Source of the DNA: a virus | Lineage: Duplodnaviria; Heunggongvirae; Uroviricota; Caudoviricetes | IMG/VR virus record: IMGVR_UViG_3300045988_149348 | DNA: 42,988 bases | Strand: one strand, 5' to 3' | Shown here: positions 23,215 through 39,718 of the stretch, one piece after another | Layout of the letters: each line of letters starts with the position of its first letter | How positions within the stretch are numbered: position 1 is the first letter of the stretch | Position numbers and translations under genes: made by a program | Notes under the pieces: model-generated | The model's database searches: none | The model's input: only the letters and a program-made list of their open reading frames with translations | What the model was told of the DNA's origin: nothing

Positions 23215-23290
23215 TGGTGGCCCCTACCGGATTTGAACCGATGACCGTGCGATTATGAGTCGCCTGCTCTAACCACTGAGCTAAGGGGCC
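23215..23290 (-). tRNA. tRNA with CAU anticodon (Met or Ile2/lysidine type)
   Basis: 76-nt cloverleaf folded by hand: 7-bp acceptor stem, GCTC/GAGC D stem, anticodon loop CUCAUAA, T loop TTCAAAT, 3' CCA encoded. The 5' 42 nt match E. coli ileX-type tRNA as recalled. Confidence 0.8.
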
Positions 23291-31832: not shown

Positions 31833-31850
31833 TTAACGAACTCCAGTTAA

Positions 31851-31865
31851 ACCACGATATGTGGT
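31851..31865. promoter_or_regulatory. operator, ACCAC-N5-GTGGT family (ACCACGATATGTGGT), Cro-side
   Basis: Perfect 15-bp inverted repeat in the cro leader; imperfect neighbour ACCACATATCGTGAG at 31872..31886 falls in the spacer of a TTGAAA-17-TTTAAT promoter on the minus strand. Confidence 0.6.
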
Positions 31866-31953
31866 ATTAAAACCACATATCGTGAGTTTTTCAATGGGCG
31901 AAACAAAAAATAACCTTCTATTTGTGGTCCACCTCTCGTCTTACCATGTGAAA

Positions 31954-31968
31954 ACCACTAAATGTGGT
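31954..31968. promoter_or_regulatory. operator, ACCAC-N5-GTGGT family (ACCACTAAATGTGGT), repressor-side
   Basis: Perfect inverted repeat just upstream of a TATAAA -10-like hexamer (31973..31978) and the CI-like gene start. Confidence 0.6.
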
Positions 31969-32005
31969 AATGTATAAATAACCCACCATTCACGATTGAT
32001 GAGAC

Positions 32006-32662: not shown

Positions 32663-32704
32663 TACACAGCACGGCGAAAGCCGTGCATTTCTACGCTCAA
32701 AAAA

Positions 32705-32719
32705 ACCACATTTTGTGGT
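32705..32719. promoter_or_regulatory. operator, ACCAC-N5-GTGGT family (ACCACATTTTGTGGT)
   Basis: Perfect inverted repeat between the CI-like gene and 32755..33129, followed by TTGACA. Confidence 0.55.
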
Positions 32720-32754
32720 TTTGACAACATGTAAAAGTATAAAAGAGGCTACGC

Positions 32755-33264: not shown

Positions 33265-33933
33265 ATGGAGTCTCGACAAATGACTATCTCTGTAGGTATT
33301 TTCAACGGAAAAGGCGGCGTAACCAAATCAACAATTGCCCGTGCTTTAGCAGTTGCTTATGCAAAGGCTGGCTGGAATGTATGCCTGATCGATATGGATG
33401 TGCTTAACGGAACGGTAACGCGTTGGGTACAACGCAGAATGGCCAACAATATCGAACCAGCAATCGCGGCGCAGCCGTGCGGCACACCATCACAAGTCCA
33501 GAAAATCATCGAATCAGAAGTATACGACCTGGTTATCGTTGATGGCGGTGCCTACGCATCTGAATCAGTACCGAAGCTATCTGAATTTCTGGATATGGTT
33601 ATTTTGCCAACCCGATTCTCTACCGATGACCTGGAAACCACCGTTAACACTGCTCACGGCATCGTTAAAAAGGGTGTGCCAATCAAGAAAATTTGCATGG
33701 TGTTTTCCGGCGCGGCTGAAAATGAAGCTGACTATATTGAAGCCCAAGAGTACCTGGCTAATACGCCATACTTTGTTGTCGATAAGTACATTCCCCACAA
33801 GCCAGCTCTGAGCAAAGCTCAGGATAAGGGCTTAAGCCTCATTGAATGCTCATACGTTGCGCCACGCAAAAAGGCAGACGACGTTATTCAGGGGATTATC
33901 AACCAGCTTGAGGCTCTGACTACTGCCGCGTAA
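33265..33933 (+). CDS. ParA-family partition ATPase (small, type Ib-like)
   Basis: 222 aa; deviant Walker A GKGGVTKST near the N-terminus; followed by a small ribbon-helix-helix-like gene; AT-rich repeats upstream. Confidence 0.7.
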   Translation: MESRQMTISVGIFNGKGGVTKSTIARALAVAYAKAGWNVCLIDMDVLNGTVTRWVQRRMANNIEPAIAAQPCGTPSQVQKIIESEVYDLVIVDGGAYASESVPKLSEFLDMVILPTRFSTDDLETTVNTAHGIVKKGVPIKKICMVFSGAAENEADYIEAQEYLANTPYFVVDKYIPHKPALSKAQDKGLSLIECSYVAPRKKADDVIQGIINQLEALTTAA

Positions 33934-34446: not shown

Positions 34447-34469
34447 TAAAAAAGGCCCCCGAAGGGGCC
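34447..34469 (-). terminator. rho-independent terminator (minus-strand orientation)
   Basis: GGCCCC-CGAA-GGGGCC hairpin with an A-run on the plus side, giving a U-run on the minus strand after the small peptide ORF. Confidence 0.55.
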
Positions 34470-34475
34470 TAATCG

Positions 34476-34598
34476 CTACTTGCTGCTAATGTTTATCGTC
34501 ACATTCAGAGCGTTATCAGTAATCTTCCAACCCTCCCCATGTGGCGTAAACAAAGCTCCAGTAACAACGATAAAAATACACATGTAGTATTTTTTCAT
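34476..34598 (-). CDS. small hydrophobic peptide (40 aa), candidate membrane peptide
   Basis: MKKYYMCIFIVVTGALF...; AAGGG 8 nt upstream of ATG 34598; own terminator downstream. Low confidence. Confidence 0.3.
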   Translation of the reverse strand: MKKYYMCIFIVVTGALFTPHGEGWKITDNALNVTINISSK

Positions 34599-34976
34599 TG
34601 TGTGGCCCTTACAGGCCGTTTCACGGCATCCCCACCGACGAAAATGACGCGAGAGCAAGCACGCTGTTTGTGCCTGCGTGGTACGGCAAGTGGATAATCC
34701 TTTCCTGAAAGTCGGTGCCCGGTTGCGAATCGGCGAAAAGGCCCCGCGTAATGTTACACCGCAGCCCCTTCATAATGAAGGGATAAAAATGTATTGTTTT
34801 TCATTAGGTTAAATACACACCACAAAAATCACTCGCTTTTGTGCTCTAATAAACCAAATTTATTTGGACAATTTTATTCAGTTGGGTAAGAATATGGTTG
34901 CTGTTTGTGCTTGCGTGGTTGTATTTATACAACAACGTAATGCTGAAAGGACCGCGAATCCGATCAGCACGAAAGA

Positions 34977-35556: not shown

Positions 35557-35692
35557 TTTTTATCCCCATACTGAATTTTTTCTTGTTCCCGACTTTAACA
35601 AAACCCCACAACTCAGGACTGATTGATTCCTTACAGGAACTATACATTCCCATTTTTAGCATATCAAGAAAATTAAAAGCCCCGCATTCAAA

Positions 35693-35707
35693 CCCACACT
35701 ATGTGGT
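35693..35707. promoter_or_regulatory. operator, ACCAC-N5-GTGGT family (CCCACACTATGTGGT, one mismatch)
   Basis: Immediately upstream of an extended -10-like TGTTAAAAT (35711..35719) that precedes the candidate small-RNA region. Confidence 0.5.
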
Positions 35708-35737
35708 TTAGTCTGTTAAAATCCCTCTGTATTGACA

Positions 35738-35839
35738 TAAATGCGCCATTGGTGGACACTTTCCGAGCCGTAGCAAAATCTACGGTCGGGATTGGAACCC
35801 CGTAGACACAATGGCGCATACCGCGTTAGCGGTTTTTTT
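35738..35839 (+). ncRNA. candidate c4-like antisense regulatory RNA with intrinsic terminator
   Basis: Structured ~100-nt region: GCGCCATTG...CAATGGCGC long-range stem, CCGTAG/CTACGG inner stem, then ACCGC-GTTA-GCGGT plus UUUUUUU terminator (35820..35839). 35789..35817 is complementary in two blocks (CATTGTGTC, GTTCCAA) to 35917..35941 in the downstream leader. Confidence 0.5.
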
Positions 35840-36005
35840 ATGCGTAAAGCACTGCTACACCCAAATTATGGTGGGGCGTGCGGGGGAGTCGTAAGACTCG
35901 CCGGTTCGTCATTGTGTCCGGTAGTTCCAACCCTGCACGTCTCACCACCCAATGATTGGAACCTGACGGTGGTGAGTATCCTTAACCTTTAAGGGAATCA
36001 TCACA

Positions 36006-36197
36006 ATGACAAACCTACCCCATGACTATTACGTCAACCTCGTAAAGATCCTTCTCAAGAAAGCCTCATACGCCGATAAAGTCCGCCTGGCTGAAATCAT
36101 CGAGCGCGAAGCTATGCGCATCGCCAGCAACGATAACGCTGTTTCTGACGCAAAAATCTCCCTCGTAACCAAAGTAGTTATGGGAGGTGCAAAATGA
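36006..36197 (+). CDS. icd-like small ORF, translationally coupled to the antirepressor gene
   Basis: 63-aa ORF whose TGA stop overlaps the ATG of the next gene (ATGA); AAGGG ribosome-binding site lies in a CCTTAA/TTAAGG hairpin. Confidence 0.5.
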   Translation: MTNLPHDYYVNLVKILLKKASYADKVRLAEIIEREAMRIASNDNAVSDAKISLVTKVVMGGAK

Positions 36198-37375
36198 AAA
36201 CGCTTCCGATCGTTAACACCCTACAGCCTATCCTGCATAACCAGATCCCCGTTATCACTACTGAACTACTGGCAAAGCTATACGGCACAGACGTTGATAA
36301 CATCAAAAAAAATTACTCACGTAACGCAACCCGCTTTATTGAAGGAAAGCATTTTTTCAAAGTGGCTGGCGATGAGTTAAAAACTTTGCGAGTGACTTTA
36401 AGTCACTCACAAAATTTGCGACTAGTTTTAAACGAGTCACAAAATGAAGTGCAAATTTCCCCCAAGACTCGCTCTCTCATCCTCTGGACAGAACGCGGGG
36501 CTGCACGTCATGCCAAAATGCTTGAAACTAACCAAGCGTGGGATGTATTCGAACGGCTGGAAGACTGCTATTTCAGCCAGAACGCGCAAACGGCCGCGAC
36601 CGTAACCGTCTCGCCAAACAATGCTCGTGAGGTTGTCGATACGCTCAACGCCAAACCGATGTTTTACATTAAAGTGTGCAACAACGAGCCACTCACAACC
36701 TCAGCCGATGTTGCCCAGGCATTCAGCACCACAAACAATTCCATCGTTATGGCCATCGATGCGCTACGCATTCCTCGCACGGCTGCGGCGCGTCACTTCT
36801 TTAAAGAGCAACGACCGTTGGAAGGAAGCGACCGCGAAATAACAATCTATCGCATGACAAAAGACGGATTTACCTTGCTCATGGAGAGCATCGACGGTCC
36901 AGGCGTGAAAGATATCAAGCTGGCCTACATTGAAGCCTTTAACGCTATCAGCAGCGTGTTAAAAACACAGTACGAGCGTGATCTGGCTAAACGACTGTAC
37001 CAGGAAAAAACGATTATCCGCGCGGCAACAGAGCATAATCGGCTATTAACGGAACCGAACTACAGGAAGGAACTAATCAAGGAGTTTGACAAGGCAACAG
37101 GGAAAACCAAAGCGGCGCTAAATCTGCCAGCAATGACTCAGGAAAATGTGATATCAGCCTTACTTCTTGATCTGCTCAGAAACGCCAGAGCACTTATCAG
37201 CTTTGACGAAAACCTGAATCCTCAGCTCAAGCTACTACCACCGACAGGCAAAGTAGTCGACCAGGCTGATCACAACAGCATACTCAGCGTACTGGATGCA
37301 AACCTGCCAGCCAGGACACTACAGGATCTGATAAAAACATGTGCTGATAAGCTGGCACAGAAAAGCAGACCATAA
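36194..37375 (+). CDS. antirepressor-like protein (ORF6N/KilA-N-like N-domain + Rha-like domain)
   Basis: 393 aa; N-terminal ITTELLAKLYGTDVDNIKKNYSRNATRF (ORF6N-like) and central PLTTSADVAQAFSTTNNSIVMAIDAL (Rha-like), as recalled; GGGAGG ribosome-binding site. Confidence 0.6.
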   Translation: MKTLPIVNTLQPILHNQIPVITTELLAKLYGTDVDNIKKNYSRNATRFIEGKHFFKVAGDELKTLRVTLSHSQNLRLVLNESQNEVQISPKTRSLILWTERGAARHAKMLETNQAWDVFERLEDCYFSQNAQTAATVTVSPNNAREVVDTLNAKPMFYIKVCNNEPLTTSADVAQAFSTTNNSIVMAIDALRIPRTAAARHFFKEQRPLEGSDREITIYRMTKDGFTLLMESIDGPGVKDIKLAYIEAFNAISSVLKTQYERDLAKRLYQEKTIIRAATEHNRLLTEPNYRKELIKEFDKATGKTKAALNLPAMTQENVISALLLDLLRNARALISFDENLNPQLKLLPPTGKVVDQADHNSILSVLDANLPARTLQDLIKTCADKLAQKSRP

Positions 37376-39065: not shown

Positions 39066-39365
39066 TCAGATGTTAAACGCTATTCGTTTTCCTGTGGGAA
39101 GCTCAACATCCAGGCTTAATTTGCCTCCCATAGCTTCAACGTAACGCTTTAATGTCGCCAGCTTTAAATCATTTCCGCGCTGCTCCAGCTTTGTTACTGC
39201 TGGCTGGCTTATACCCATCGCCTCAGCAACCTGTTTTTGTGATAACTGGAGTTCTTCACGCATCATCTGCAAGCCGACCTCAAGAATCATCTCATCTGCC
39301 ATTTCTTTAATTCGCGCCTGGCTTTCAGGTGAACGGCTGGCAATCACCTCATCTAATGTTCTCAT
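39066..39365 (-). CDS. HigA-like antitoxin (HTH_XRE)
   Basis: 99 aa; helix-turn-helix LSQKQVAEAMGISQPAVTKLEQ; start overlaps the stop of the upstream toxin-like gene. Confidence 0.6.
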   Translation of the reverse strand: MRTLDEVIASRSPESQARIKEMADEMILEVGLQMMREELQLSQKQVAEAMGISQPAVTKLEQRGNDLKLATLKRYVEAMGGKLSLDVELPTGKRIAFNI

Positions 39366-39718
39366 TACTTGCTCTCCAGTGTGTTCAGATGTGCTGCAAA
39401 CTCATCCTCAGCTATACGCACCAGTTTTTTATAAAACCGCTTATCGTTACTTTTGTCTCCTGCACAAAGAACGATAGCCCGGCGAATCGGATCGAACGCA
39501 TAAAAGGCTCTTATCGGACGGCCAGAAAACTGAACGCGAAGCTCTTTCATATTTTTGTACCGAGAACCTTTTACGGTATCGGCATATGGCCTGGGTAACT
39601 CAGGTCCGTAAACCTGTAGATTTTTCAAATCAGCCAAAACCTTTTCCTGAAGAGCGTCTTCTTGCTCATTTAGCCAGTCGTCAAATCGCTGGCTAAAAAG
39701 TACCGTCCACATGATCAA
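39365..39718 (-). CDS. HigB/RelE-family (Gp49-like) addiction-module toxin
   Basis: 117 aa; W.V.F...F..WL...GS....MKELR...YRA.Y......IVL..G.K pattern as recalled for the killer-protein family; toxin-first order. Confidence 0.6.
   Translation of the reverse strand: MIMWTVLFSQRFDDWLNEQEDALQEKVLADLKNLQVYGPELPRPYADTVKGSRYKNMKELRVQFSGRPIRAFYAFDPIRRAIVLCAGDKSNDKRFYKKLVRIAEDEFAAHLNTLESK

Follow-up and report, generated by a model that had tools for sequence, protein, structure and literature searches.

The 42,988-nt stretch of DNA analyzed here (the window, to which all coordinates refer) is a viral (Caudoviricetes) record, IMGVR_UViG_3300045988_149348. It contains two structured RNAs in tandem, an IsrK-family RNA and a C4 antisense RNA, which lie downstream of a promoter and are followed by a leader with a short open reading frame (ORF) and an antirepressor-type gene, referred to as ant (Table 1). 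These parts very probably form an immI-type, RNA-controlled antirepressor cassette, in which IsrK acts as a decoy and C4 as the antisense RNA that is likely to silence ant. The assignment is based on family membership, RNA structure, and a three-way complementarity with covariation. The element is of a known kind: it is an unannotated member of the IsrK/C4 family with minor local variations and does not constitute a new system. The carrier of the cassette is most likely a circular, myovirus-like E. coli phage-plasmid of ~48 kb.

An Rfam library scan of the whole window at curated thresholds identified the upstream RNA as IsrK (RF01394; 67.7 bits versus a gathering score of 50; model positions 1-77). 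As the family requires, this RNA has three hairpins, the last of which is an intrinsic terminator (35820-39) composed of an ACCGC-GUUA-GCGGU hairpin (35820-33) and a U7 tract, and the terminated RNA is 73 nt long. The loop of hairpin 2 holds the recognition block b1 (UUGGAAC, 35792-98), and a second block, a1 (GACACAAUGGCG, 35805-16), is single-stranded and ends 4 nt before the terminator stem. A more permissive scan added the c4-a1b1 motif (RF03163), which is described in Rfam as "a1, b1 targets of C4 antisense RNA". Its full model (1-53) aligns at 35754-35806, overlapping the first two IsrK hairpins, with 38.8 bits (E = 2e-8), which is below the gathering score of 46.7. The same model scores above threshold on the IsrK stretch of Gifsy-1, VT2-Sakai, and Klebsiella phage 48ST307, which indicates that IsrK carries the a1/b1 element.

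The RNA that follows IsrK matches C4 (RF01695) over the full model (1-87) with 77.8 bits versus a gathering score of 45 (E = 1e-13). When folded alone, its minimum-energy structure is the Rfam consensus (-46.6 kcal/mol, z = -5.69), with a 17-bp basal stem (35869-85 with 35931-47) that encloses hairpins 1 and 2. The 13-nt loop of hairpin 2 (35905-17) holds block a' (GUCAUUGUG, 35908-16), and block b' (GUUCCAA, 35924-30) lies in a single-stranded junction; both are nearly fully accessible, since 1.0 kcal/mol is enough to open them. The original prediction for this region, made from the letters alone, had proposed a c4-type, P1 immI-like element ahead of a small ORF coupled to an antirepressor, and had suggested a covariance-model search for c4-family RNAs as a check. 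This search found C4 above threshold at 35864-35952 and thus bears out the proposal. The intrinsic terminator behind the upstream folded RNA had also been recognized correctly, whereas the terminated RNA itself, taken for a c4-like repressor of ~100 nt, is the 73-nt IsrK.

Two frames that overlap C4 were considered as genes and rejected. An orf45-like ORF starting at the conserved AUG 35868 has only 8 codons, and a 50-residue frame from AUG 35840 has neither a ribosome-binding site nor a family match. In one relative (locus L019), PGAP annotates a spurious-looking "ash family protein" at 1852-2139, equivalent to the window from ~35911. The residues of this protein that match Pfam Phage_ASH (2-39, 26.1 bits) derive from the 3' half of C4, the downstream site b2, and the GGUGGUGA segment. 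Some of the ash family may thus represent conserved C4 RNA that is translated as if it were a coding sequence.

A repeat search revealed a second set of sites, b2 and a2, in the leader downstream of C4. The segment GAUUGGAACC (35954-63), which contains b2, is a perfect direct repeat of 35790-99, and CACAAUGACAAACC (36002-15), which contains a2, can pair with 35903-16 over 13 of its 14 nt. Within the latter, a2 and a' are exact complements over 9 nt (duplex energy -11.0 kcal/mol). The site b2 is displayed in the loop of the CUCACCACC/GGUGGUGAG hairpin. This hairpin and the C4 basal stem are mutually exclusive, as the 5' arm of the former also serves as the 3' strand of the latter. Across 16 loci, the GGUGGUGA segment shows little or no variation. 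Further downstream, a small CCUUAA/UUAAGG hairpin (35980-94) contains the AAGGG ribosome-binding site of the leader ORF. Both hairpins had been predicted and were found, and the b2/a2 set had been missed. The leader stretch originally proposed as the target is in fact the a' loop and b' junction of C4, and the mRNA sites lie at 35956-62 (b2) and 36002-10 (a2).

Both blocks of C4 also pair with IsrK. Seven nucleotides of b1 pair with b', and a1 pairs with 35907-18 (CGUCAUUGUGUC) over 12 nt, which include one G-U pair and 8 contiguous Watson-Crick pairs. The IsrK:C4 duplex has an energy of -36.5 kcal/mol, compared with a mean of -19.8 kcal/mol (standard deviation 3.3) for dinucleotide shuffles, none of which was as good (0/2000; z = -4.98). 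The two-block complementarity had been part of the original prediction and stands, but the partner is 35907-35930 instead of 35917-35941, which is placed ~10 nt too far 3', and the longer block lies mostly outside the latter. RNAcofold was uninformative for C4 with either IsrK or the leader, because the loop-loop contacts are pseudoknot-like for that algorithm, and was replaced by block duplex energies combined with opening energies. The summed block energies are -24.7 kcal/mol for C4:IsrK and -18.3 kcal/mol for C4:leader. C4 blocks thus bind IsrK more strongly than the leader, which fits a role of IsrK as competitor. In the minimum-energy fold of the entire region 35762-36030 (-101.1 kcal/mol, z = -4.47), a' and b' are engaged in cis by a1 and b1.

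The leader ORF matches phrog_7886, a family of unknown function (2e-46), and its stop codon overlaps the start of ant by ATGA (36194-97). The 393-residue ant product matches Pfam ORF6N (1.7e-20) and Phage_pRha (4.1e-12) as well as anti-repressor families in PHROG (down to 3.7e-60), and its N-terminal domain is 50% identical to that of Gifsy-1 AnrP over 166 aligned positions (E = 2e-49). Comparison with P1 Ant1 showed no homology (best E-value 1.4). Homology of the leader ORF to Icd was rejected, as BLASTP gave no alignment to P1 Icd and the ORF did not match NF033153, a model that P1 Icd itself matches with 3.4e-14. An icd/ant-type operon, as originally described, is therefore present with respect to the icd position, the ATGA coupling, and the antirepressor, but not with respect to homology to Icd or Ant1.

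Table 1. Features of the cassette and of other parts of the window. Strand is given where it applies.
Feature	Position	Strand	Source
isrK promoter: -35 TTGACA (35732-37), 17-nt spacer, -10 GACACT (35755-60)	35732-35760	+	Read from sequence
IsrK-family RNA: c4-a1b1-equivalent element with own terminator	35767-35839	+	RF01394
C4 antisense RNA	35864-35952	+	RF01695
Hairpin CUCACCACC/GGUGGUGAG (arms 35941-49/35968-76) with b2 (UUGGAAC, 35956-62) in loop	35941-35976	+	Repeat search, folding
Translation-initiation region of leader ORF: ribosome-binding site AAGGG (35991-95), a2 (CACAAUGAC, 36002-10) spanning AUG 36006	35980-36010	+	Repeat search
63-residue leader ORF in icd position	36006-36197	+	ORF list; phrog_7886
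Antirepressor-type gene (ant), 393 residues, ORF6N and Rha domains	36194-37375	+	Pfam, PHROG
Candidate operator palindrome CCACACTATGTGG, core of AACCAC-N5-GTGGTT (35691-35709)	35694-35706		Repeat enrichment
AACCAC-N5-GTGGTT copies	31849-31867, 31870-31888, 31952-31970, 32703-32721, 35691-35709		Window scan
ParA ATPase	33265-33933	+	Library scan
Gp49/HigB-like toxin with helix-turn-helix (HTH) antitoxin	39066-39718	-	Library scan
tRNA gene	23218-23290	-	Library scan

Comparative analysis supports this three-way pairing. We assembled 17 comparison loci from a Yersinia relative, lambdoid/Stx phages, P2-like phages, an N15-like Klebsiella phage, P1, D6, and Gifsy-1, which together with the window make 18 loci. 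All 17 contain the upstream RNA and C4 in tandem, with IsrK as the upstream RNA except in P1 and D6, which have c4-a1b1, and all of these tandems are located upstream of antirepressor-type or derepression genes. There are 10 different b' heptamers and a comparable diversity of a' loops among the 18 loci, and each heptamer is exactly complemented at offset 26 of its own IsrK and again 1-9 nt after its own C4. For each of the pairs b':b1, b':b2, a':a1, and a':a2, cognate complementarity exceeded non-cognate complementarity, and in each test none of 20000 permutations matched the observed value. On a structure-blind alignment, 99.1% of cells are paired for b1:b', and both partners vary in 6 of its 7 pairs. 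When partner positions were slid by 1-3 columns, 26-46% of cells were paired over the whole tested structure, and the covariation score of this structure was reached by none of 500 shuffles. Pair counting for a':a2 and b':b2 on a 16-locus MAFFT alignment was weak (70.5% of cells paired), because the offset of a2 varies among loci and the alignment is out of register, and for these sites it was replaced by the alignment-free cognate versus non-cognate tests.

Within the phage-plasmid family of the window, the recognition blocks vary on a constant background. Seven family members have the same promoter, stems, and terminator, the sole difference being an A/G change in the promoter spacer. The same members carry four combinations of a and b alleles, each consistent across a1/a'/a2 and b1/b'/b2. 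The a alleles include type I (GUCAUUGUG) and type II (CCAUGGUGA). In all seven, a2 spans the AUG and covaries with a', whereas in the other loci examined a2 adjoins the ribosome-binding site, 10-20 nt before the AUG. The b allele GUUCCAA also occurs in a P2-like Citrobacter phage, and the b allele ACGCCAA is common to Gifsy-1, VT2-Sakai, TL-2011b, cdtI, and one member of the phage-plasmid family. Such covariation of alleles is the pattern expected of immunity-specificity determinants, of which P1 and P7 are reportedly an example.

The layout of the element, promoter-a1b1-c4-b2/a2-small ORF-ant with an ATGA overlap, is that of P1 immI, and from it we infer how C4 would be excised and how it would block expression. 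Transcription would start at ~35767 from the single promoter (35732-60), and many transcripts would stop at the intrinsic terminator to yield the 73-nt IsrK RNA. Transcripts that read through would continue across C4, the leader, the 63-residue ORF, and ant. By analogy with P1 and P7, in which c4 is a stable RNA of ~77 nt that represses ant in trans, C4 would be excised from these, with RNase P generating its 5' end, and its a' and b' blocks would pair with a2 and b2 on the mRNA. Pairing at a2 would cover the AUG of the leader ORF and prevent its translation; ant, which is coupled through the ATGA overlap, would then remain untranslated as well, probably with additional Rho-dependent polarity. 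The main repressor of the element would stay active, and any superinfecting relative that has these alleles would be repressed in trans. The b1 and a1 decoys of IsrK would compete for C4, either free or as part of the long transcript, and since the predicted binding of C4 to IsrK is tighter than that to the mRNA, an excess of IsrK would turn ant on.

Several features of this model have been observed for the isrK-orf45/STnc1160-anrP locus of Gifsy-1 (Hershko-Shalev et al, 2016; PMC4825925). There, the operon is transcribed but not translated (280 versus 4 units), IsrK binds Hfq and activates antirepressor translation in trans, increasing that of anrP by ~140-fold, and a processed RNA, STnc1160, exists downstream of IsrK (PMC4825925), at the position homologous to C4. 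The compensatory mutant pairs G28A/C162U and G31A/C159U proved a helix (PMC4825925), and by counting positions on the Gifsy-1 sequence we found that they map exactly to b1 and b'. The double mutants restore the helix and nevertheless stay largely derepressed (224-327 units versus 4; PMC4825925), as expected if b' must also pair with b2, which is unchanged in these mutants.

Other observations weigh against this model or limit it. RNAduplex of C4 versus the leader is by itself not significant (z = -1.7), and as the two leader sites are 39 nt apart, this interaction is supported through covariation instead. Over whole segments, RNAduplex is confounded by stem sequences, and in P1 and D6 also by an a1 site that the c4-a1b1 model does not cover. 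In folding predictions, the leader is able to sequester its own ribosome-binding site without C4, and the -10 hexamer of the isrK promoter is weak. Furthermore, single b1 mutations in cis raise basal expression in Gifsy-1 (PMC4825925), which a pure decoy model does not predict. Long-range cis pairing, which is "structure A" of the Gifsy-1 paper and also occurs in the minimum-energy fold of the window, may thus contribute to silencing.

The primary work on P1/P7 immI is said to be that of Citron & Schuster (1990, 1992) and Biere et al (1992). The P1/P7 operon has the order a1 b1 - c4 - a2 b2 - icd - ant1/2 (summarized in PMC8546580 and PMC8201110). The window shares with P1 the order of elements on a single transcript, the C4 fold with a' in the loop and b' in the junction (RF01695 matches both), complementary sites upstream and downstream of C4, and a short ORF in the leader that is coupled to ant through an ATGA stop/start overlap, the same overlap that joins icd to ant1 in P1. 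In both cases, the cassette resides on a plasmid prophage. In contrast to P1, the upstream a1/b1 element is of the IsrK type and scores below the gathering score of the c4-a1b1 model, a2 covers the AUG instead of adjoining the ribosome-binding site (GUUAGUGAGG in P1), the leader ORF and the antirepressor are unrelated to Icd and Ant1, and a P1 C1-type operator is absent.

The likeness to Gifsy-1 comprises IsrK directly upstream of C4, the related N-terminal domains of the antirepressors, and the b1:b' pairing, which corresponds to the helix proved there. The Gifsy-1 locus differs in that it has no separate leader ORF: anrP starts just after a2, which adjoins its ribosome-binding site. In addition, C4 is overlapped there by the 45-codon orf45, which is reduced to 8 codons in the same frame of the window, and the b/a alleles are ACGCCAA/CGGUGAU, as opposed to GUUCCAA/GUCAUUGUG in the window. 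Finally, Gifsy-1 is an integrated lambdoid prophage in which AnrP feeds into AntQ. The comparison joins three separate literatures, on P1 a1b1/c4, on Gifsy-1 IsrK/STnc1160, and on Rfam c4-a1b1, and it shows that the downstream b2/a2 sites, which are unused in the Gifsy-1 model, covary as tightly as b1:b'.

In satellite phage P4 and phage N15, a processed leader RNA (the P4 CI RNA, with seqA and seqC, and the N15 CA RNA) pairs with flanking sites, promotes transcription termination, and thereby enforces immunity. The window resembles these systems in that a small RNA would derive from an operon leader with complementary sites upstream and downstream. A C4-like RNA that pairs with a1/b1 and a2/b2 on the nascent transcript could accordingly promote termination here instead of blocking translation, an alternative that we consider unlikely. 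It would fit the position of a1, which ends next to the terminator stem, and the fact that C4 and c4-a1b1 share an Rfam clan (CL00128). In loci L004, L007, L009, and L011, folding also predicts a terminator-competing structure that is lost when a1 is blocked. The Gifsy-1 authors themselves raise the possibility of termination and liken IsrK to P4 seqA, and IsrK in trans raises a transcriptional fusion 8-fold too (PMC4825925). In the window, however, the terminator hairpin is independent of the state of a1 in equilibrium folding (probability 0.94 versus 0.97), as it is in most loci; the idea of an antiterminator structure that would compete with it was therefore rejected as unsupported in the window. 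The location of a2, which is on the start codon here and beside the ribosome-binding site elsewhere among the loci examined, points to translation initiation, as does the terminator folding to translational control, and the Gifsy-1 operon is transcribed while remaining untranslated (PMC4825925).

Klebsiella phage 48ST307, an N15/phiKO2-like linear plasmid-prophage, carries the isrK and C4 tandem beside its protelomerase gene (L014, 1406-1594). The anti-immunity RNA locus of N15 may thus be another member of the IsrK/C4 family.

A second alternative is a conformational switch that acts purely in cis, as modeled for Gifsy-1. In this case, there would be no free C4; the transcript would alternate between an inactive fold, with a1/b1 paired to a'/b', and an active one, IsrK would displace the cis pairing, and translation of an orf45 that overlaps C4 would drive ant. 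The long-range cis fold of the window and native-gel and mutant data that back two conformers in Gifsy-1 (PMC4825925) are in line with such a switch. We nevertheless regard it as quite improbable, since the orf45 frame has 8 codons in the window and a widely variable length among loci, since it leaves unexplained the exact b2/a2 copies that covary with b'/a' in 18 of 18 loci, and since Gifsy-1 double mutants in which b1:b' is restored stay derepressed. Finally, the reverse assignment of the original prediction, in which the terminated upstream RNA (35767-35839) is a c4-like antisense repressor acting on ~35917-41, has very little probability: although the complementarity of 35792-35816 with 35907-35930 is real and significant and the upstream RNA has its own terminator, like a free small RNA, this RNA matches IsrK and c4-a1b1, a family of C4 targets, the claimed target sits inside a structure that both matches and folds as C4 and contains neither a ribosome-binding site nor the start of a conserved ORF (AUG 35868 opens 8 codons), and IsrK of Gifsy-1 activates ant expression instead of repressing it (PMC4825925).

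Under the decoy and antisense model, every cassette makes an IsrK decoy for its own C4, and elements that share alleles could therefore cross-talk. It is conceivable, though doubtful, that the a and b blocks form a combinatorial RNA "address" that assorts independently and that the cassettes constitute an RNA network between mobile elements for immunity and anti-immunity. If so, IsrK of an incoming phage could titrate resident C4 and induce the resident element, resident C4 could silence ant of the incomer, and the cassette would not be a private switch.

The isrK promoter predicts a transcription start at ~35767, which coincides with position 1 of the Rfam IsrK model. A consensus promoter scan did not call it, because its -10 hexamer fits the consensus at 3 of 6 positions. 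The promoter had been described as overlapped by an operator. It is indeed present, with a perfect -35 and a weak -10 hexamer, but the palindrome CCACACTATGTGG, the sole operator-like element, lies 25 bp upstream of the -35 hexamer and does not overlap the promoter. The promoter-spacer motif ATGCGCCATTGGTG was considered as a repeated operator and rejected (6 matches versus 4.7 expected). The spacer also contains one arm of a perfect 11-nt inverted repeat, ATGCGCCATTG (35741-35751), whose other arm, CAATGGCGCAT (35809-35819), lies within IsrK immediately ahead of the terminator. All seven family members share the 9-nt core of each arm, even where a1 differs, and the motif has no further copy in the window.

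The palindrome is enriched in the window, with 13 matches at up to one mismatch versus 1.65 expected, a number reached in none of 100 shuffles. Five copies are located in regulatory spacers (31852, 31873, 31955, 32706, and 35694). Three of them lie in the divergent region upstream of a 220-residue HTH gene, and one adjoins a TTGACA -35 hexamer upstream of ORF 32755. The copy at 35694 is equidistant from the isrK promoter and the leftward promoter of a 190-residue HTH gene and is conserved in all seven family members, except for one A/G change in its spacer. AACCAC-N5-GTGGTT is probably the operator of the main repressor of the element, which would tie isrK/C4 to the main switch. Centered ~68 bp upstream of both divergent promoters, the copy at 35694 may link isrK/C4 expression to this repressor.

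The relatives of the window are circular elements of ~48-52 kb with genes for RepA, ParA, terminase, portal, capsid, and a contractile tail. The combination of plasmid genes and phage structural genes identifies them as a family of phage-plasmids. The query region was matched in 83 of 5426 complete E. coli genomes, in most of them on a plasmid. One relative, the 48-kb plasmid NZ_CP009073.1 of E. coli ATCC 25922, is 98% identical in this region and has the same a and b blocks as the window. Yersinia phages, for example vB_YpM_39 (95% identity), belong to the family as well. Our literature search found no paper on this phage-plasmid family. In pFDN11_2 and vB_YpM_39, the two records inspected in full, both IsrK and C4 lack annotation, and the practical use of these results lies in annotating this RNA pair in a widespread E. 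coli/Yersinia phage-plasmid family.

Beside the cassette, the window carries another structured RNA. RyfA is usually a chromosomally encoded RNA, and a full-length ryfA homologue (RF00126, 136.6 bits) is located on the minus strand at 34448-34746, between the ParA region and the 190-residue HTH gene. The phage-plasmid ryfA, which was found in Yersinia phage vB_YpM_39 too, may represent a type I toxin-antitoxin-like addiction module.

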